Positions 6,165 to 58,409 of a stretch of DNA of 64,000 nt are shown here, piece by piece; positions within the stretch are counted from its first letter, which is position 1; each line of letters starts with the position of its first letter. This stretch comes from an uncultured Gammaproteobacteria bacterium. Lineage in GTDB: Bacteria; Patescibacteriota; Microgenomatia; UBA12405; JAHJSD01. Position numbers and translations under genes: made by a program. The stretch spans positions 163,063 through 227,062 of the forward strand of contig CAZCGQ010000001.1 in NCBI GenBank assembly GCA_964498425.1. The letters are read 5' to 3'. The notes under the pieces are model-generated. The model did no database searches and was not told where the DNA came from. It saw nothing but the letters and a program-made list of their open reading frames with translations.

Positions 6165-6192
6165 GTAGGGACAATCCTAGGATTGTCCCTAC
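6165..6192. repeat. 28-bp perfect palindrome GTAGGGACAATCCTAGGATTGTCCCTAC (copy 1)
   Basis: Read directly. Lies in the 50-nt uvrA stop / uvrC start spacer. Confidence 0.8.
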
Positions 6193-13548: not shown

Positions 13549-15450
13549 TTAATCTACTATCTCTCCCTCTTCTGCATCTTCATCACTTTCCGGTTCTATT
13601 TCTTCTTCTTTCTTCTCTGGTTCTTGGGCACCGGCTTGATGCAGCTTCGTTCCTACTTTTTGTAAGGTTTGACTTAAACTTTCAGTTGCTTTTTCGAAAG
13701 TTTCCTTGGTCGCCTCCTTGTCAGACAAAGCCTCTTTAGCCTTCTCCACCGCCTGGGAAATCTCCTCTTTGTCTTCTTCAGCTAACTTATCCTTAGCGTC
13801 CTCAACCATCTTCTCAGCCGCAAAAATTGTGTTATCCAAATTATTTCTTGCCTCAGCTAATTCCTTCTTTCTTTCATCTTCCTCAGCGTGTTTATCGGCT
13901 TCTTCCTTCATTTTCTCAACTTCCTCTTCAGACAGTTGAGTGGCATTTTTTATTTCAATATCCTGTTTCTTGCCAGTTGCTTTATCCTTAGCCGTAACTT
14001 TCAAAATTCCATTGGCGTCAATATTAAAAGTAACTTCAATCTGAGGCACGCCTCTTGGCGCTGGTGGAATACCGTCTAGTATAAACCGACCTAAGGACTT
14101 GTTATCCGAAGCCATCGGCCGTTCACCTTGAAGAACATGAATTTCAACTTGGGTCTGGTTATCAGCAGCAGTTGAAAAAACCTTTGATTTTTCTGTTGGA
14201 ACAGTTGTGTTGCGATCAATTAATGGCGTCATCACTCCACCCATAGTCTCAATTCCTAGGGTTAAAGGCGTAACGTCAAGAAGCAAAACATCCTTAACTT
14301 CCCCAGAAATTACCGCCGCTTGTATTGCCGCTCCAACGGCAACTACTTCATCAGGATTAACTGATTTATTTAAATCTTTGCCAAAGAATTCCTTAACAGT
14401 CTCTTGAATTTTGGGCATCCTTGTCTGACCGCCAACCATAATAATTTCATCGATGTCACTTGTCTTTAAACCGGCATCATTCAAACAGGACTTAACCGGG
14501 TCCATTGTCTTTTTAATTAAGTCATCGGTCATTTGCTCTAACTTTGACCGAGTTAACTCTAATTCCAAGTGAACCGGCTCGCCTTCCTTTTGAGTAATAA
14601 ACGGTAAATTTATTGTTGTTTCCTGCTTGGAAGAAAGTTCCTTTTTAGCTTTCTCAGCTGCTTCCTTAAGTCTCTGCATTGCCTGATCGTCTTCTTGAAG
14701 ATTGACATCTTCCTTCTTACCAAATTCTTCAAGGGCCCAATCAATTATTCTTTGGTCAAAATCTTCACCGCCAAGAAAAGTATCTCCATTAGTCGCTTTA
14801 ACCTCAAAAACACCATCACCAATTTCCAGAACTGAAACATCAAATGTCCCGCCGCCCAAGTCATAAACAGCAATTGTTTCTCCAGCTTTCTTTTCTAAAC
14901 CATAGGCTAAAGAAGCTGCTGTTGGCTCATTAACAATCCGTTCAACCTCCAACCCAGCAATTTTTCCGGCCTGCTTGGTTGCTTGACGTTGGGAGTCGTC
15001 GAAATAGGCAGGAACAGTAATTACTGCTCGACTGACTTCTTCGCCCAAATATTCTTCTGCATCCTTTTTTGCTTTTTGTAAAATTTTGGCAGAAATTTCC
15101 TGTGGTGTGTAAACCTTATCCTTAACCTCAACCGCCGCCATGTCATTTTTACCTTTGACAATTTCGTAAGGAACCATCTTTTTGGCTTTTTCAACCTCTT
15201 CACTGTCATATCGCCGACCCATTAACCGTTTAATAGCATAAATTGTCTGCTTTGGCTCAAGGACCATCTGCCGCCGGGCCAATTCCCCAACTTGACCCTC
15301 AACCGGGTCAACTACAGAAGGAATTAAGTTACTCCCCTCACTAGTTGGAATAACTTTCGGCTTACCGCCTTCCATTACCGCTACACAAGAATTAGTTGTT
15401 CCTAAATCAATTCCAATTATTTTACTCATTGTTTTTTTGTCCTTTGCCAA
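13549..15450 (-). CDS. dnaK: Chaperone DnaK (Hsp70)
   Basis: [14 protein letters not shown] and DLGGGTFD motifs and a full Hsp70 ATPase domain, with an acidic C-terminal tail. Confidence 0.95.
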
Positions 15451-20477: not shown

Positions 20478-20479
20478 TG

Positions 20480-20552
20480 TGCGCTCGAGAGGATTCGAAC
20501 CTCTGACATTCCGCTTAAGAGGCGGATGCTCTGCCACTGAGCTACGAGCGCC
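20480..20552 (-). tRNA. tRNA-Lys (anticodon CTT)
   Basis: The reverse complement folds as a cloverleaf: acceptor GCGCUCG/CGAGCGC, D-arm GCUCAGUGGCAGAGC, anticodon loop cuCUUaa, T-arm GAGGUUCGAAUCCUC. CCA is not encoded. Confidence 0.85.
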
Positions 20553-20708
20553 TATATTTTTTTGCTCGAAGTTGAGCCACTGTCAGCCAAAGGCTGATGG
20601 GCCTCTGGCCCAAGCTACGAGCGCAAGTGTGGCAATTATATCAAATCTACCGCAATCAATAAATCTATTACAACAATAACTCACGATCGGGAGTAATTGT
20701 TGACAGGT

Positions 20709-26293: not shown

Positions 26294-26321
26294 GTAGGGA
26301 CAATCCTAGGATTGTCCCTAC
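26294..26321. repeat. 28-bp perfect palindrome GTAGGGACAATCCTAGGATTGTCCCTAC (copy 2)
   Basis: Identical to copy 1. Lies between the YYY-GT stop and the pcrA start. Confidence 0.8.
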
Positions 26322-51273: not shown

Positions 51274-51390
51274 TTTTTCACCCGGAAAGTTAAACTTTCC
51301 CTACGCTTAATATATCAAATATATCTAGGTACAGCAAATAAACAAATTGCATAAACCAACCTGCAATGTTAAAATTAAACCTACGCGGAG

Positions 51391-51481
51391 CTTTGATATA
51401 GGAGGGTTTACCCGCCGAAGCTTTGACGTATGCGGGCTTGCCCGCCGAAGCTTTGTGCGTAGGAGGGTTTACCCGCCGAAG
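51391..51481 (+). repeat. Three head-to-tail 30-31-nt repeats (CTTTGNNNGTAGGAGGGTTTACCCGCCGAAG) immediately upstream of tRNA-Val
   Basis: Direct reading shows exact 30-nt periodicity. Two more copies lie at 51591..51646, upstream of tRNA-Ile. Confidence 0.7.
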
Positions 51482-51483
51482 GC

Positions 51484-51557
51484 GGGCGGTTAGCTCAGTT
51501 GGCTAGAGCGTTTCTTTGACGTAGAAAAGGCCAGGGGTTCGAGTCCTCTACCGCCCA
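51484..51557 (+). tRNA. tRNA-Val (anticodon GAC)
   Basis: Cloverleaf with acceptor GGGCGGU/ACCGCCC, D-arm GCUCAGUUGGCUAGAGC, anticodon stem UUUCU/AGAAA with loop uuGACgu, and T-arm AGGGGUUCGAGUCCUCU. Confidence 0.85.
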
Positions 51558-51648
51558 CCCACGTACCAGTGCAAGCACGGTACATGGCAAGCATCGGGGG
51601 TTTTACCCGCCGAAGCCTTGTACGTAGGAGGGTTTACCCGCCGCAGGC

Positions 51649-51722
51649 GGGCCGTTAGCTCAGTCGGCTAGAGCGCTGTCCTGATAAGACAGAGGTCTCA
51701 GGTTCGAGTCCTGAACGGCCCA
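51649..51722 (+). tRNA. tRNA-Ile (anticodon GAT)
   Basis: Cloverleaf with acceptor GGGCCGU/ACGGCCC, anticodon stem CUGUC/GACAG with loop cuGAUaa, and T-arm UCAGGUUCGAGUCCUGA. Confidence 0.85.
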
Positions 51723-51726
51723 CCCA
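51709..51726 (+). repeat. 18-bp direct repeat, left copy (TCCTGAACGGCCCACCCA, the 3' end of tRNA-Ile): attL-like
   Basis: An exact copy recurs at 55063..55080. An upstream GTTCGAG block is also shared. Confidence 0.6.
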
Positions 51727-51797
51727 TAGTTACAACCGCACTTCCAAACAAGATGTCAAAGGGTGGTTTTAGCCTTGCCTTCCAAACTTTTTCACCT

Positions 51798-52145
51798 TTA
51801 ACAATAAAGTTCAAGAAACTTGTCAAATTCCATAACCTTATCCTCAATTTTTTCTTTCTTTAAAAAGCCGAGTAACATTCCCGATTCAAGCATATTCCTC
51901 GAAATTTTATTTGGTTTCCAGGAGATTATCGAATTAAACACACCTTCGTTAATATCTTTAATCATTTCATTGAATTTTGGCCTGTTATCTGAATCCTTAG
52001 CACTTTTATTCTCTTTATAAGTTTTTACGACCTTAAGACCTAATCTGTCTGCAGAAGTTTGACATTCCTGAATTTGGTCGGTTAACGAATACTCCTGTTT
52101 GTTATCCCCACTAGTAGACTTTCTTGCATAAATGCAGTAAACCAA
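51798..52145 (-). pseudogene. Serine recombinase (resolvase/invertase) catalytic-domain remnant lacking a DNA-binding domain
   Basis: CIYARKSTSGDNKQEYSLTDQ is the YxRxST catalytic-Ser motif. DSDNRPKF...NKISRN is the SG/DRLsR region. The ORF ends after ~115 aa. Confidence 0.55.
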
Positions 52146-52264
52146 ATCTTCCTTGTTGACCTATTTTGACTTTATAAGTTCATTGAATAACCGAAACAAC
52201 CCCCCGTAGTTGCCATTTTTCAATCACAATTTAATATTATTTAATCCTAAATTTTTATAATCTA

Positions 52265-52855
52265 CTAAAAACCTAAGCTGATTAGAGCTTCTTCATCACC
52301 AAGCAACTTTAAATCCCCGACCTTTAACTTAAATCCCTTAGCGTCAGTAGGAACTTCATATATATCAATAAATTCAAAAGGAACGTTAGGATTTAGGTTA
52401 GACAACATGAACAAACTTTTATCTTCAGGAATCCAATCGCTAGCGTCAGGAGCAGGTTTAAATTCCCGGTTTTGGTCATCCATCAAATCTAAGTTGGAAA
52501 CAGATTTCATTTCTTTGCCCAAGTTTTCAACCATAACCGTTACTTCAACAAACTTTCCACTGGCGGTTTTATCCTCAGATAAGGAGGGATATTTACTGTC
52601 TGAAGCTTTTAACACAGAACCTAAATCTCTAGCGTCAACCAATTTCCACTTTACCTCGTCAACGACAACTTCTTCGCCCATCTGATAAATTTTTTCCTCT
52701 TCTTGTTTTCCCTCATCGTTTTTTGTCGTAGTTTGTTCTTGATTAGTTGAAGTAGTAGGTTTTTCCCCTTCGTTGCCGCCTGTAGCCACAATTATTACTA
52801 CTAAAACAACAAAGGCAATCAAGCCCCATTTGAAAAGCTTTTTCACTTTCTTCAA
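52265..52855 (-). CDS. Membrane-anchored secreted protein, DUF4352-like (uncertain)
   Basis: N-terminal TM anchor, then a Thr/Glu-rich linker and a beta-rich domain. Architecture typical of phage/island-associated DUF4352 lipoproteins. Confidence 0.3.
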   Translation of the reverse strand: MKKVKKLFKWGLIAFVVLVVIIVATGGNEGEKPTTSTNQEQTTTKNDEGKQEEEKIYQMGEEVVVDEVKWKLVDARDLGSVLKASDSKYPSLSEDKTASGKFVEVTVMVENLGKEMKSVSNLDLMDDQNREFKPAPDASDWIPEDKSLFMLSNLNPNVPFEFIDIYEVPTDAKGFKLKVGDLKLLGDEEALISLGF

Positions 52856-53264
52856 TTTTGTTCACCCCCTTTCTTGGGAGTATCCATATTTTAGTCTATC
52901 CTTTAGCTAAGGATAAGTCAAAAACAGTTTTAGGCAACCTCTAACGTCTTCAAAAGCCAATTCTTGACAACTAAAATGAAGTCCTGATTATGAAAGGTCC
53001 TTAATATTCAAAAAACTTTGGGTAATATAAGATAAGTAAATATACTTACAAATTTTTAATATAAACAAATATAGCTTACGGTTAATTATTTAACTTCCTC
53101 AAGTAGGTTCCTTGCCTAGGGGCATAAAAACTATTTTGTCTAAGACCAAAATTAACAGTAGTGAATTCAAAAGGTATAGCTCAAAATCGTTTGATTCAAA
53201 CTTCATCATTATTTAACCCTGTACACCTATATTTTTTATATTTCTTTGATATAATTCGCCTAAA

Positions 53265-54620
53265 ATGAGCAAATTGATTATTGAAAAAAACTACAAGGCT
53301 GTAGAAGCTGGCCTTCAAGTACCCAACAATGACTTCAATATTTTCATTGGAGCTAATAACTCCGGAAAAACATCTTTATTAGGAGCCATCCACAAAAAAA
53401 TCGGAAGGGCTAATGCAGTTACAGTTTCACCACAAAGATTCAACATTAATCCCAATCTTAAAGAAGATGACAGGGAAAGGTTTGACGATTACGTTCGAAC
53501 TTCAAAGTCTAAAGGTGCAACTCACAATGGCTCAAATGAGGTAAGCCTTCCCAATTTCATACAATTATTCGCTGGTATGGAAAGAATTGATAGCAACCGG
53601 TTAATTGCCTGGATAAACAACAATTTTCCCATCAACATACTAAGAAGAGAAGATACAAGCAAAGGAGTAACCAAAACAATTCTTGAGATTGATGGACAAC
53701 CACCTGATGTTCAAGGTACGGGATTAAGGTCGTTAATGAACTTACTTTTTCACGTTTTTAGCTCAGATAACAAGGTATTGCTAATAGATGAACCAGAAAT
53801 ATCTATTGAGCCAGAAAAACAAAAAATTTTATTTGATTTATTAAAAAATGTAAGCCAAGGACAAGTAGATGGAGTGGAAAAAAAGCAGATTTTTATTGCA
53901 ACTCACTCTCACCTTTTTTTAGACAGGCAAAAAATAAGTAACAATTATCTGATTACCAAAGATTCTCTAGGAAAAGTTGAAATATACCAACTTAAAACCG
54001 AAAATGAATTCTATACCAAAGTTTTTAGTATGATAGGCGTAACTCCACAAGACATGTTTTTACCTAATAATATTTTAGTTGTTGAAGGTCCAAGTGACTA
54101 TTTTTTCTTGAGAGAGGTAGTGAACCAATTGAATAATACCGGTAAAGTTATTGCCATTCATCACGCAGAATCAGACTCTAGGATATGTGGAGCTTGTCGT
54201 TCAATTGACGATATTCTAAAAATTCCACTTAATCCAGAAATTTTCCTTTACCGAGGCAAACTCTGTGTGTTGTTTGATAAGCAAAAAAGGCAACAATACG
54301 TTGAAGACGCAAGAAAAGCATACAGTGATGACGGTTCACGTATAAGACAATTAACGAAAGGCCCCATTGAGCTATATTATCCCCCAAAGATTGTATCAAG
54401 AATTACTGGTATCGACTCAAATAACATTGAGAAAGCGTTAATGAAATTTGTTAAAAATTGTAAAAAAAGTAAAGATGGAAGGGGCAAATTAGGACAGAAT
54501 AAATTCAGTAAGGTTGAACTGGCTAAAAAGGTAGTTGAAAAAATGAAAGATTCCAATGATTGGGAACTTAACCAAGAAATTGAAGATATTGTAAACAAAG
54601 TAATTAAGTTAGGATATTAA
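53265..54620 (+). CDS. OLD-family nuclease (N-terminal ABC-type ATPase + C-terminal Toprim), anti-phage defence candidate
   Basis: Walker A IFIGANNSGKTSLLGAI, an ABC-signature-like GTGLRSL, Walker B VLLIDEPE, an H-loop ATHSHLF, then the Toprim-like ILVVEGPSDYFFL and acidic residues downstream. Confidence 0.6.
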   Translation: MSKLIIEKNYKAVEAGLQVPNNDFNIFIGANNSGKTSLLGAIHKKIGRANAVTVSPQRFNINPNLKEDDRERFDDYVRTSKSKGATHNGSNEVSLPNFIQLFAGMERIDSNRLIAWINNNFPINILRREDTSKGVTKTILEIDGQPPDVQGTGLRSLMNLLFHVFSSDNKVLLIDEPEISIEPEKQKILFDLLKNVSQGQVDGVEKKQIFIATHSHLFLDRQKISNNYLITKDSLGKVEIYQLKTENEFYTKVFSMIGVTPQDMFLPNNILVVEGPSDYFFLREVVNQLNNTGKVIAIHHAESDSRICGACRSIDDILKIPLNPEIFLYRGKLCVLFDKQKRQQYVEDARKAYSDDGSRIRQLTKGPIELYYPPKIVSRITGIDSNNIEKALMKFVKNCKKSKDGRGKLGQNKFSKVELAKKVVEKMKDSNDWELNQEIEDIVNKVIKLGY

Positions 54621-55062
54621 ACTATCTCACGAGAGAGCAAATTATTTCCTTCTTCGAACACTTATAGTATTAGTTCGAGAAGAATTAAGCTATAGTGTAC
54701 TGGTTAGTAGTTGGATAGGAAAAGCCCTGTTTTTTAAGGTCTACAACTGCCCCGTCAATTCCAATCACTTGAGTAGACGTTAGTTCAATTCCTCCAACTG
54801 TTGAAGTTCCACTTGCCGTAGTCGTGGTTTTTGTTGGGATTTCAATTTTAATAATTTCTCAGTTAGCTTCGCCAAATCGTTAAACATTGTTTTTTCTTGA
54901 TTAATTTTTAACTTTTAAATTTAACGAGATTATATAGAATAACTTTCCCAATAGTTTGCGGTAGGAAGTCTATTTCACCAAATAAATAGGCGTCCATTTC
55001 TTGGTTGAAGTTTTTGATTACGTTAGAATTGTAAAACGCAAAGTTGTAAAGTTCGAGGTAAA

Positions 55063-55080
55063 TCCTGAACGGCCCACCCA
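55063..55080 (+). repeat. 18-bp direct repeat, right copy (attR-like)
   Basis: Exact match to 51709..51726. Confidence 0.6.
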
Positions 55081-55084
55081 CTCC

Positions 55085-55124
55085 TTGACAATGTACAATT
55101 AAAATGTTAGATTAAATTTAACAT
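55085..55124 (+). promoter_or_regulatory. Putative promoter (TTGACA-17nt-TAGATT) with the palindrome ATGTTAG-N9-TAACAT overlapping the -10 and start codon of the antitoxin gene
   Basis: Read directly from the sequence. This is the typical layout of an autoregulated toxin-antitoxin operator. Confidence 0.4.
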
Positions 55125-55368
55125 GAATGTTGTAACATCTACTACACTAAGAAACAATTTAGCCGATGCCTTTAACGAGGTAGCTGAAAAAGATTATCTT
55201 TTGGTCTCCAAAAGGGGCAAAATAAAATCTGCCCTGGTTAATATCAACTTTTTAGAGGATTTATTAGCCCTGGCTAATAAAAAGTATCTAGCAAGCATAA
55301 AAAAAGCCAGAGAGGAATATGAAAAAGGGGACGTTTTTACCCATGAACAAGCCTTCGGCGAAATATAA
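55123..55368 (+). CDS. Type II antitoxin, Phd/YefM family
   Basis: TTLRNNLADAFNEVAEKDYLLVSKRGK...VNINFLEDLL matches the Phd/YefM fold. Confidence 0.75.
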   Translation: MNVVTSTTLRNNLADAFNEVAEKDYLLVSKRGKIKSALVNINFLEDLLALANKKYLASIKKAREEYEKGDVFTHEQAFGEI

Positions 55369-55609
55369 GCTTCTTTATACCAAATCCGCAATTAAGGATA
55401 TTAACAAACTTGATCCTGTCGCTAAAAAGAAAATCAAAAAAAAGATAGAACTATATTCACGAAAGCCATTCAGGCATGCAAAAAAACTAATCGACTCAGC
55501 TTTAGGTACATACCGGTGGCGGGCTGGCGACTACCGAATAGTGTTTGATCGAGATGAAAACAAACTAATTATCCTCTGCGTTGGCCACCGCAAAGAAATC
55601 TACCGGTAA
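55343..55609 (+). CDS. Type II toxin, RelE/ParE family
   Basis: KYKLLYTKSAIKDINKLDPVAKKKI...YRWRAGDYRIVFDRDENKLIILCVGHRKEIY. It overlaps the antitoxin; the start is uncertain (an ATG at 55343 is assumed). Confidence 0.75.
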   Translation: MNKPSAKYKLLYTKSAIKDINKLDPVAKKKIKKKIELYSRKPFRHAKKLIDSALGTYRWRAGDYRIVFDRDENKLIILCVGHRKEIYR

Positions 55610-55686
55610 CCTTTAACTCTTTACTATTAACTATTCACAATACTTATCCGAACATCAGGTCCAAACCCCGCCGATTAAGCCAGTTT

Positions 55687-56910
55687 TTAATTCACCCAAC
55701 CGCCTTTTCCAGAAGCTATTTTCAATTGTTCAGCGGAAATCCTTCTTGCGTGATGACGTTGAACTTGGAGCTCTAATTCTTGCCTCGATAACAATGCACG
55801 CCTAACTCGATAAAAATCCCTATCGTTTTTTATCCCCCAACGTTCTTGCTCCGATTTTAACCTTTTATCTAACTTGGGATACGTTTGTTCATCCCTACTA
55901 AACCGAGCTAAACTAACCAACTTACCAATTTCCCTGTCATCAAGTCCCATAACTCTTAAACCTCTTATCAGATTAAAAGCCTTGTTTGCTAATAAAAAGT
56001 CACTATCATTTTCACTATAATAATCAACAACAAATCTAGCTATTTCATCTCTTTCATCTAGGCTTTTATCACCAAACCCAGGGTTACTAGCCGTTGCTTC
56101 AAAAGCATGAATTTCACCAAGGATTTTATCATTGGTGAAATTTGACCGTATTTTTTTAACTAAATGATAAGTTGAAGCCATAAAAGACAGTGCTGGAACA
56201 AGTCCATATCTGGAAAGAATAGTTTGATACCCGACCGCCCGACTTAGTCCAGGTAAATATAACATTGCTTTTTGCATTTTCGAGTATTGCTTATCATGTG
56301 TCAATTCATGATCCAAATTGAATATCAGTTTTGGTAATTCTCCCTCATCAGCCATTGAAGCCCACATTTCTTCCACCGTTGGAGACTTAAATGGAAAAGC
56401 AGCTAAATCAAGTAACGGTAAATAGACCCCTCCAATGCTTTTCTTTCCCATTACTTTTGCGACTAAGGAATCTGGTGCAAAAAATCTAACCCAGGAGTCA
56501 TATCGACCATTTTCTAAACCGGCAAGAAGGGCGGCGGCAATACCAACATCTTCAAGTTCCTCAAGATATTCAGTTTCTCCTCTTAGCCTAAGAATCAAAT
56601 GATCAAACTCTGGCTTTAAATCCTTAGAAGGAATCCTGGATAAATAACTCTCGGCAATACCCGTCGAAAGTCCAACGGGACGATTTATCAACTCGAAAAA
56701 TTGATTAAGATTATCCCTATAAGCTACTAATTTCTTAATCTCTTGACTACCCGAATCTACTTCGTCAATATCTCGAAATCCGTCTCGTATGTGCGCTTCA
56801 AATTTCCGCTGCATCCACTCTTCAGGAGATATAAAATCGTCTCGATAACGCTCATAAATAACTTGGAGTTGATCACTACCTATTCTTTCTCCACCTTCTT
56901 CTGTCATCAT
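55687..56910 (-). CDS. Hypothetical 407-aa soluble protein with an HExxH motif (possible zinc metallopeptidase-like)
   Basis: The only recognisable feature is the motif NLDHELTHD. No TM helix. Confidence 0.3.
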   Translation of the reverse strand: MMTEEGGERIGSDQLQVIYERYRDDFISPEEWMQRKFEAHIRDGFRDIDEVDSGSQEIKKLVAYRDNLNQFFELINRPVGLSTGIAESYLSRIPSKDLKPEFDHLILRLRGETEYLEELEDVGIAAALLAGLENGRYDSWVRFFAPDSLVAKVMGKKSIGGVYLPLLDLAAFPFKSPTVEEMWASMADEGELPKLIFNLDHELTHDKQYSKMQKAMLYLPGLSRAVGYQTILSRYGLVPALSFMASTYHLVKKIRSNFTNDKILGEIHAFEATASNPGFGDKSLDERDEIARFVVDYYSENDSDFLLANKAFNLIRGLRVMGLDDREIGKLVSLARFSRDEQTYPKLDKRLKSEQERWGIKNDRDFYRVRRALLSRQELELQVQRHHARRISAEQLKIASGKGGWVN

Positions 56911-56928
56911 TAAATTCTATCAAAAAAT

Positions 56929-58104
56929 TTATCCAAACATCAGCCAGGAGGGCTTAAAGAGAAGAAGCAGGCCGATAATAAACATCAAAATTCCTCCAAT
57001 AAGATTGGAATATCGGGAGTACTTAGTAGAAATACCAGTCATCTGCATGGTAATCATTGCGGCAAAGAAAACAAACAGGTCATCAACCATAAAGAAGAAG
57101 ATATAAATGGCTATGTAAAAATAATACCGCCAGGTGGCTAAATTATTAATTGCCAAAACCTGAGTGAAGACCGCCGGCAAACCAGCTGAACAAATTAACT
57201 CCACGACATTAACCGCCAAAGCCAGCAAAATTATCCCTCCTAAAGCCAATATAAAATTCCGGCGATGGGTTATATCCTTAATTTTGTCAAAAACCCGACG
57301 GCGTTTTTCATCCCCAGTAACCTTACAACCGCCGTCCTTATTCACCCAAAATTCACGTAAATTATAACCACCTGCAGCCAAAGCAACTAGACCAATTGCC
57401 AACCTAATCCAAATAACCATTCCTAAAAGTAAAAAGAAATTTAGCCAAGCCGCCATAATCATGAAGTAGACAAAGGCGGAAGTAACAATAAAGGCAATTC
57501 CAAGAATCCACATTCTTTTCTTATCTTTCATTCCCAGCAGCAAGGAAATTAAAAATAACAGTGTCCACATCGCACAAGGATTAAACCCGTCCAACGCTCC
57601 CAAAATAACTGATAACGCCGGTAGAGAAAGTTCTTTAGTCTTAATCTGACCTAAAATGGGTACGCTCAAATTATCCGGGATAACTGCGGAATTAGGCAAA
57701 GTAGACTGATTAGCTTCCCCTAAAATATCTTGACAGCCGGTTTCAATCGCACACTGAACATGTTCCTCTATTTTTTGTCCAGTTGTTTCATCATTATGAT
57801 AGCCGACAACATAATGTTCACCAATAACCGTAAAGGGTACACCAGGAATTTGGACATCAAGTTTTTCTCCAGCCTCTTGAAGCAACTTGGCATTATTATC
57901 CTTGCCAATTTCATAATCTTTGACAACCACTTCCGAATATTCGCTCTGAAGCCCTTTTAAAAACTCCTTCTCCTTAGCACAGTGCGGACATCCTTGACCC
58001 CAAAAAAAATGTACGGTTACCTGATTATTCTGGGCAAAAGTCGGTGAAGCCAAAAAAAATATCCCGGCGACAAAAATAGTTAACCATAGGAATACTTTTT
58101 TCAT
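56929..58104 (-). CDS. Thioredoxin-like domain (CPHC) fused to a CcdA/DsbD-type transmembrane thiol-disulfide transporter
   Basis: Signal peptide, then WGQGCPHCAKEK. A polytopic domain follows with conserved TM cysteines (FNPCAMW, ELICSAGLP). Confidence 0.7.
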   Translation of the reverse strand: MKKVFLWLTIFVAGIFFLASPTFAQNNQVTVHFFWGQGCPHCAKEKEFLKGLQSEYSEVVVKDYEIGKDNNAKLLQEAGEKLDVQIPGVPFTVIGEHYVVGYHNDETTGQKIEEHVQCAIETGCQDILGEANQSTLPNSAVIPDNLSVPILGQIKTKELSLPALSVILGALDGFNPCAMWTLLFLISLLLGMKDKKRMWILGIAFIVTSAFVYFMIMAAWLNFFLLLGMVIWIRLAIGLVALAAGGYNLREFWVNKDGGCKVTGDEKRRRVFDKIKDITHRRNFILALGGIILLALAVNVVELICSAGLPAVFTQVLAINNLATWRYYFYIAIYIFFFMVDDLFVFFAAMITMQMTGISTKYSRYSNLIGGILMFIIGLLLLFKPSWLMFG

Positions 58105-58409
58105 CTTTCTCGGTTCTCTTTGACAATCTCAATTAACTTTTCTTTTGGATGTTCCCCATTAAGCCGTAAAAATTCCTGACCCTCCTTATCTAGAAAGATA
58201 AAAACCGGAAGTTTCCCGCTTTCAACCCCGTATTCTTCAACTTTTTCCTTTTTTTTATCATAATCCAAATACTCTGTTTCCAGCCAAGAAAGCTCTTTTT
58301 CAATTTCCGCCCACCGCGGCTTCATCACCAAACAACCGGCACACCAATCCGCCCCAATTTTAATTACTTTCATAAGAGCCATTGTAAAACCTTGCTTTAA
58401 TTTTTTCAA
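58101..58409 (-). CDS. Thioredoxin
   Basis: ADWCAGC is the WCxxC active site. The Met at 58382 is the probable true start. Confidence 0.75.
   Translation of the reverse strand: MKKLKQGFTMALMKVIKIGADWCAGCLVMKPRWAEIEKELSWLETEYLDYDKKKEKVEEYGVESGKLPVFIFLDKEGQEFLRLNGEHPKEKLIEIVKENRER

Follow-up and report, generated by a model that had tools for sequence, protein, structure and literature searches.

The locus analysed here raises the question of what kind of element a series of short repeats set directly ahead of two tRNA genes might be, and whether it serves those tRNAs. The window, namely the whole stretch of 64,000 nt (64 kb) that was analysed, belongs to a Patescibacteria genome of Microgenomates-like affiliation, and its MetRS has its best named relatives in Candidatus Shapirobacteria, with an identity of about 60%. 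A sequence-only reading of the window had described five units of about 30 nt framing tRNA-Val and tRNA-Ile, and these were recovered by Tandem Repeats Finder, as a repeat family and by counting of a 20-mer against shuffled sequence. The array is in our assessment probably a head-to-tail cluster of REP-type repeats (GTAG-1/Pseudomonas type) left at a REP/RAYT locus, that is, a passenger and not a tRNA-specific signal. A REP palindrome linked to a RAYT locus is the best-supported reading, and it was missing from the options that the sequence-only reading had offered. The features of the locus are listed below, the units being given in the register of that reading.

51347..51375, plus strand: candidate sigma-70-type promoter of the tRNA operon, read from the sequence
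51391..51481, plus strand: REP-like cluster 1, three head-to-tail units in the tRNA-Val leader (Tandem Repeats Finder, repeat family, HMM, alignment); units 51391-51420, 51421-51450 and 51451-51481
51472..51486, plus strand: collapsed terminal hairpin CCCGCC-GAA-GGCGGG across the tRNA-Val 5' end (sequence; folding)
51484-51559, plus strand: tRNA-Val (GAC) (ARAGORN; Rfam RF00005, 65.2 bits)
51563..51583, plus strand: spacer hairpin GTACC-N11-GGTAC 3' of tRNA-Val (sequence; columns conserved in relatives in the spacer alignment)
51586..51646, plus strand: REP-like cluster 2, two head-to-tail units in the Val-Ile spacer (repeat family; nhmmer E=7e-6); units 51586-51615 (degenerate) and 51616-51646
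51637..51651, plus strand: collapsed terminal hairpin CCCGCC-GCA-GGCGGG across the tRNA-Ile 5' end (sequence; folding)
51649-51724, plus strand: tRNA-Ile (GAT) (ARAGORN; Rfam, 70.7 bits)

A tandem array of 30-nt period was reported by Tandem Repeats Finder at 51389-51481 (3.1 copies, 80% matches, score 128), and one repeat family of five copies (51398, 51428, 51459, 51593 and 51624) was obtained with 79-100% identity to its reference. The 20-mer GGAGGGTTTACCCGCCGAAG, allowing up to three mismatches, occurs four times in the window, each time at this locus, and in none of 100 shuffles. No copy of the unit was found elsewhere in the 64-kb window, and all five sit at the tRNA-Val/tRNA-Ile locus. 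The window units are 30-31 nt long, share the core GTAG-GA-GGG-TTTA-CCCGCC-GAAG and are described by the pattern GGGYTTRCCCGCCGMAG. The units of cluster 1 are made up of G/A-T-A/C-G/T, GGAGGG/GCGGG, TTTA/CTTG, CCCGCC and GAAG, in which GGAGGG/GCGGG-TTTA/CTTG-CCCGCC constitutes a stem-loop, and hairpins are predicted in the precursor folds; the internal-hairpin variant of the unit noted from the sequence is indeed present. The head reads GTAG in units 3 and 5 and ATAG, GTAT or ATCG in the others, and it is GTAG in the related locus L106. Each last unit together with the first 28 nt of its tRNA forms a direct repeat of 73 nt at 92% identity. In a search of the window locus with Rfam 15 at gathering and permissive thresholds, the tRNAs alone reached threshold and the remainder was noise.

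The candidate promoter comprises TTGCAT (51347-52), a spacer of 17 nt and the extended -10 element TGTTAAAAT (51367-75), whose form TGnTAAAAT is invariant across five aligned orthologous loci; it was missed by a simple promoter-consensus scan because its -35 element matches at only 3/6 positions. No promoter-like or terminator-like site was found within the array. Since the array lies downstream of the extended -10 element and holds no such internal site, transcription probably includes it in the pre-tRNA as leader and spacer, with this candidate promoter as the putative start to judge from its sequence. The earlier option that the units are promoter repeats is not supported by this arrangement, in which the array follows the conserved TGnTAAAAT and is itself free of promoter-like sites.

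It had further been claimed that each tRNA is preceded by a unit ending in CCCGCC-GAA, which pairs with GGCGGG at the tRNA 5' end in a 6-bp hairpin overlapping the RNase P site. The hairpin is real before both tRNAs and does lie over the RNase P site, but GGCGGG is not wholly tRNA, as this arm combines leader GGC with tRNA G1-G3. The stated unit end holds for tRNA-Val (arms CCCGCC 51472-77 and GGCGGG 51481-86, loop GAA) but not for tRNA-Ile, where the copy reads CCCGCC-GCA (arms 51637-42 and 51646-51, loop GCA). In isolation both terminal hairpins reach -11.4 kcal/mol each. Folding of the precursors, which the sequence-only reading had proposed as a check, went against it: in the MFE fold of the 102-nt precursors, the acceptor stem is retained together with the hairpin internal to the unit, and the leader-tRNA hairpin is absent. 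The z-scores are weak for these precursors (-0.67 and -2.27) as well as for the 347-nt whole precursor (-2.19) and the 100-nt leader (-1.74). The hairpin over the RNase P site could, going by the predicted pairing, be formed transiently during transcription, and it would be a by-product of a truncated terminal unit (CCCGCC-GNA-GGC) abutting a tRNA with a GGG start.

Comparison at the orthologous locus of relatives was the most instructive with regard to the dependence of the tRNAs on the units. The state of each locus is as follows.

Window: three leader units, two spacer units, RAYT gene absent
L106: two leader units, spacer beyond the contig end (which falls inside tRNA-Val), RAYT truncated
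L190 and L199: no leader units, one degenerate spacer unit, the tRNA beginning about 10 nt past the -10 element
L189: no leader units, one degenerate spacer unit, truncated tRNA-Val 5' copies in the leader
L198: no leader units, no spacer units, unrelated 95-nt leader, RAYT absent

The tRNA-Val is 76/76 identical in L189, L190, L193 and L199, and the relatives' tRNA-Ile shows at most one base difference (none over 75 nt in L190/L199); the copy number of the units is variable among loci with identical tRNAs. The degenerate spacer unit of L190, L199 and L189 reads GGCGGGCTTGCCTCGCCGTAG...GAAGGC, and alignment with these three loci displays the window array as a clean insertion between TGnTAAAAT and tRNA +1. 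L106 shows synteny with the window over 42.8-51.2 kb (65-85% identity at the amino-acid level), and conservation in its intergenic alignment is limited to the units and the tRNA. No unit was found in the 17-kb orthologous stretches of the relatives. Scanning of genomes with the tRNA 5' half as anchor yielded at least 120 loci (Chloroflexota, Planctomycetota, Saccharibacteria and others), and among the matches listed the unit was found only in L106. The Saccharibacteria loci L013 and L057 carry the 5' 45 nt of tRNA-Val identical to those of the window without the unit, which is therefore not a general feature of this tRNA. A precursor-processing structure, another of the earlier options, is made less likely by the lack of leader units in L190, L199 and L198 despite a 76/76 identical tRNA-Val. 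The absence of the repeats from relatives with identical tRNAs, on which the sequence-only reading had staked its account, is thus largely what was observed. L106 has the array in common with the window, and in the wider family a few double changes preserve the structure.

Duplicated and interrupted tRNA segments are seen at other positions of the lineage. In L189, at about 200-510 on the minus strand, a double hairpin TGAGCCAAAGGCTCA-TCAGCCTCTGGCTGA is inserted into the D-loop of two or more truncated, tandemly arranged tRNA-Val 5' copies, which stand upstream of the intact tRNA-Val in a stretch that includes a masked run of N. It is of the same type as the double hairpin in the leader of tRNA-Lys(CTT) of the window (20479-20551). 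This upstream leader (about 20552-20635, minus strand) opens with 12 nt that duplicate the 5' end of the tRNA (GCGCTCGTAGCT), followed by the 30-nt double hairpin TGGGCCAGAGGCCCA-TCAGCCTTTGGCTGA and then by D-loop and 3' acceptor-strand remnants, so that it looks like a degenerate tRNA-Lys copy into which a small palindromic element has broken. Just upstream stands TGATATAAT, an extended -10 element.

The flanks of the array were also inspected. Immediately 3' of tRNA-Ile lies a variable island (window 51725-58359) with a truncated serine recombinase (51798-52145, minus strand), a DUF4352 protein, two unannotated ORFs, an AAA_21/AbiEii-like ATPase (53265-54620) and a Phd/ParE toxin-antitoxin pair (55123-55609); its position is taken by a P-type ATPase gene in L190/L199 and by an FAD-dependent oxidoreductase in L198. 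On the other side, the only other assembly of the segment, L001 (Logan SRR15425351 contig, 12,774 bp), breaks off within the PEGA/SH3 gene, some 190 bp before the repeat array is reached, which would fit a repeat-caused assembly break. An exact-protein look-up of the PEGA/SH3 gene product next to the array returned no match.

The orthologous site harbours a RAYT gene in the relatives. In L106 a 118-aa ORF lies between the leader units and the PEGA/SH3 gene, and its homologues are Y1_Tnp proteins of 175-200 aa named at source as RayT or REP-associated tyrosine transposase. Full-length RAYT genes occupy the same syntenic position beside tRNA-Val in L189, L190-L194 and L199. The proteins of the relatives match NCBIfam REP_Tyr_transpos at E~1e-17 with 60-65 bits, under the 80-bit equivalog cut-off, and Pfam Y1_Tnp with 34-39 bits, exceeding the gathering score of 23. 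No RAYT was detected in the window by tblastn with three RAYT relatives as queries. At 18 nt past the RAYT stop codon (L190-L194, L199) stands a perfect 28-nt GTAG-headed palindrome, GTAGGGACAATCC-TA-GGATTGTCCCTAC, which occurs twice in the window in exact form (6165-6192 and 26294-26321), in short gaps between co-directional minus-strand genes. The host lineage has canonical REPs of this sequence.

These canonical REPs are distinct from the units beside the tRNAs. The REP downstream of the L190 RAYT, GTAGGGACAATCC-TA-GGATTGTCC, differs from the tRNA-flanking unit; no palindrome was found in the 60 nt upstream of that RAYT, and the nearest unit of the tRNA-flanking type in L190 is the one in the Val-Ile spacer. 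A RAYT flanked by two inverted copies of one REP was not seen in the relatives, nor was the unit found in the flanks of the more distant RAYT homologues L195 and L201-L215. What links RAYT and unit is position only, because the REP adjoining the relatives' RAYT has a different sequence. In L198, at the position of the relatives' RAYT (14740-14850), GC-rich hairpins bounded by GTAG...CTAC surround a perfect 14-bp inverted repeat, TGATATGCAGGCAA/TTGCCTGCATATCA, which may be a REPIN-like remnant.

The unit itself bears a close likeness to a published REP. When the reverse complement of the 35-bp REP consensus of P. putida KT2440, c-ggcctcTTCGCGGGtaaaCCCGCtCCtaCaggg (Aranda-Olmedo 2002, as quoted in PMC11585281), was aligned with unit 3, 22/25 columns were identical with a score of 32, whereas none of 6362 control windows from the same 64 kb scored above 23. 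Pseudomonas REPs are classed as GTAG-1 (Di Nocera 2013, PMC3733652). In REPs of this class the stems are short, the GTAG head is set off from the stem by a dinucleotide, and a 3-bp motif is conserved on the far side; some genomes have them reiterated in tandem, copies within genes occur, and there is an association with RAYT in "REPtrons" (PMC3733652). According to the same survey a head-to-tail arrangement is rare among REPs, and the degenerate heads that it lists do not include GAAG (PMC3733652). The relatives' RAYT, with its HUH motif and SFYDH tyrosine region, resembles that of REPtrons (Nunvar 2010, PMC2817692; Ton-Hoang 2012 via PMC3733652), and REP-like units lie within about 70-200 nt of it; unlike REPtrons, the window lacks RAYT, and in the relatives tRNA-Val separates RAYT from the unit while the adjoining REP is of another family.

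The core GTAG-GA-G(C)GGG-TTTA-CCCGC-(C)GAAG is nearly identical to that of the P. putida GTAG-1 REP, and the short GC stem, the TTTA loop, the unpaired bases between head and stem, the far-side GAA, the tandem clusters and the occasional intragenic copies are shared as well. The differences are equally distinct: the host is a small-genome Patescibacteria and not a gammaproteobacterium, five copies at one locus in the 64 kb examined stand against hundreds per genome, the units are arranged head-to-tail only with no inverted doublets (REPINs) and a degenerate head, and the copies lie inside a tRNA operon, touching tRNA 5' ends. E. coli BIMEs are comparable in that they, too, consist of REP units clustered at regular spacing in transcribed intergenic regions. 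Their REP orientation alternates and their linker motifs are defined, whereas all window units have the same orientation with a period of 30-31 nt.

The wider distribution of the element was assessed by running the junction pattern CGCCGAAGCYTTG-N7-10-GGGYTTRCC across public metagenomes, and about half of the 64 loci obtained hold a clearly related 30-nt element. The family is widespread; its consensus, YTTRCC-CGCCGAAGCCTTGGCG-N-AGGCGGG-YTTRCC, is a short GC-rich palindromic repeat with flanks of 34-70% GC, occurring in tandem arrays (L129, L163 with nine copies, L161 and L181) and as single intergenic copies. The window units are members of this family: an HMM built from 43 metagenome copies matches them with nhmmer at E=8e-8 and 1e-5 in cluster 1 and at 7e-6 in cluster 2. 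No Rfam match was obtained for four family arrays. Family copies lie mostly away from tRNAs and some lie inside ORFs, and in several related contigs the element stands in frame within an ORF of about 400 codons. Reading frame and strand of the copies vary from locus to locus; as the copies are read in several frames, the element is therefore one of the nucleotide level, and coding of a peptide repeat by the units was excluded on the differing frames and strands.

Among the metagenome copies, the head has A as its second base in 21 cases, T in 13, G in 8 and C in 3. Compensatory double changes are few (CCTGCC/GGCAGG, CCCACC/GGTGGG, ACCTCC/GGAGGT and TCCGCC/GGCGGA), and stem changes on both sides number seven in five loci, a test limited by the ascertainment of loci by pattern. 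Among the variant cells of the outer stem, in loci ascertained in the same manner, 45/62 are unpaired and 17 still paired.

Several individual loci deserve mention. The low-GC loci L133, L135, L155, L172, L174 and L185 share one copy at a common ORF position, which adds ...A-RRSLGEGGFA-G... in frame between conserved segments of what we take, from the flanking translation, to be an apparently cysteine-desulfurase-type (nifS/iscS-like) protein. The arrangement recalls intragenic REPs and the Rickettsia palindromic elements (RPEs). RPEs are 100-150 bp long; the wider family resembles them in standing in frame in protein-coding genes, with a 30-nt period equal to 10 codons, while the window copies lie outside coding regions and the RPE sequence is unrelated. 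Three further metagenome loci, L151, L154 and L164, have family-related elements beside tRNA genes. In L154 (1690-2075, minus strand) a full copy begins 5 nt past tRNA-Ser(GGA) and a diverged copy in inverted orientation runs exactly up to the 5' end of tRNA-Ser(CGA), the next tRNA, with a candidate GIY-YIG-like ORF, as read from the translation, between the two copies. In the Planctomycetota locus L010 (2880-2945), the sequence GAGGGGGCTTGCCCTCCGAAG, 18/20 identical to window unit 2, lies within a structured 75-nt leader of tRNA-Val(GAC), downstream of TTGACT-N16-TAGACT. Three single 17-mer matches on viral contigs, all inside coding regions, were judged to be chance, and a BLAST search of PLSDB plasmids with the three-unit consensus gave no match. 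Full-text literature searches returned no paper with the unit sequence and nothing relevant on RAYT together with Patescibacteria or on REPs in tRNA leaders.

Could the units, then, form a functional RNA leader, whose hairpins protect, time or gate the maturation of the pre-tRNA, the last of them keeping G1-G3 and the RNase P site sequestered until synthesis of the 3' acceptor strand? The position of the array downstream of a conserved promoter element, and so its probable transcription, would suit such a role, as would the stability of the terminal hairpin taken alone (-11.4 kcal/mol) with a GNA loop in both copies (GAA, GCA), the retention of units in the window and L106, the related elements adjoining tRNA genes in L154 and close to tRNAs in L151 and L164, and some compensatory changes in the family. 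Yet relatives with an identical tRNA-Val have about 10 nt of leader (L190/L199) or 95 nt of unrelated leader sequence (L198), and the absence of the units there weighs against an essential role; moreover the acceptor stem is favoured in the full-precursor MFE fold, with weak z-scores (-0.67 and -2.27), and most family copies lie far from tRNAs, some of them in ORFs, with no Rfam match. We consider this reading unlikely. It is quite improbable that in some Patescibacteria REP hairpins have been captured as cis-acting brakes on the pre-tRNA, or that the insertion machinery targets the tRNA 5' boundary. In the brake version, the truncated terminal REP may pair with G1-G3 and mask the RNase P site; were it true, the maturation of tRNA-Val and tRNA-Ile would depend on refolding or upstream cleavage and the supply of these tRNAs would be tunable. 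For targeting of the boundary speak the ancestral junction ...TTTACG/GGGCGG, which resembles the unit junction GGTTTAC/CCGCC (the slash marking the junction), and the related copies abutting the tRNA-Ser genes of L154.

Two further explanations were weighed. As sites for protein binding (iterons, operators or REP binding of the IHF/gyrase type) in the control of promoter or supercoiling, they would be in keeping with their regular spacing of about 30 bp and with the several proteins known to bind REPs and BIMEs (PMC2817692). This explanation is nevertheless highly improbable, given units that lie downstream of the promoter element and not over it, an array without promoter-like or terminator-like sites, variable presence or absence in relatives and no candidate binding protein encoded nearby in the window. 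Scarcely credible is the proposal, already raised in the sequence-only reading, that the units are serial integration/excision scars (att remnants) or fragments of a collapsed tRNA pseudogene. The variable island with its truncated serine recombinase 3' of tRNA-Ile, the degenerate tRNA 5' duplicates which the lineage carries upstream of tRNAs, and the exact 10-mer CTTTGACGTA common to unit 2 (51421-51430) and the tRNA-Val anticodon arm (51514-51523), a score equalled in 2/1000 shuffles, could be cited in its favour. However, apart from this 10-mer the tRNA likeness of the units is no better than that of shuffles, 11/12 unit-tRNA comparisons being at chance level, and CTTTGACGTA is absent from the other units and the family consensus, so that it is probably a coincidence after C-to-T and G-to-A drift. 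Likewise the units lie 5' of the tRNAs and the island 3', the 3' end of tRNA-Ile was found only once in the window, and the same family occurs far from tRNAs and within genes in many metagenomes.

The reading as a REP-type passenger cluster allows the following course of events to be proposed. The unit of the Val-Ile spacer would be the ancestral copy, being older because it is present in four relatives. It may have been copied ahead of tRNA-Val, probably via recombination between near-identical tRNA 5' halves, as the 73-nt repeat (92%) of unit plus tRNA 5' half suggests, and the leader copies would then have multiplied by slippage or unequal exchange, possibly aided by the transposase. New REP copies can arise preferentially close to the rayt gene, according to Nunvar 2010 (PMC2817692), and loss of REPtrons through deletion is documented in E. 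coli strains (PMC3733652). The window genome would have lost its RAYT gene while the repeats were kept and amplified. Transcribed as leader and spacer, the array would be removed from the pre-tRNA by RNase P and other nucleases, and the units may accordingly behave as selfish or neutral DNA, which we infer to be without function.

This reading has its own counter-evidence. High copy number, which is defining for classical REPs, is absent within the 64-kb window and the 17-kb loci of the relatives, the GTAG head is exact in only 2/5 units, and most variant positions of the family break pairing. Against the passenger character, the array is kept in two diverged genomes, always touching the tRNA 5' end. 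In view of this persistence and of the tRNA-adjacent elements in L151, L154 and L164, a modest role of the units at the RNA level is possible.

Overall, REP/RAYT-type repetitive DNA is best known from proteobacteria, and the REP-type repeat is as such of a known kind; what is unusual is its host and its location. Understood as a REP-type cluster, the array indicates that REP/RAYT-type DNA is also resident, and subject to turnover, in the very small genomes of Patescibacteria, and that it can expand within a tRNA operon up to the mature 5' end, apparently without harm to the tRNA. For the purposes of annotation, a striking structure of this kind would be explained by repeat turnover and not by a new RNA signal.
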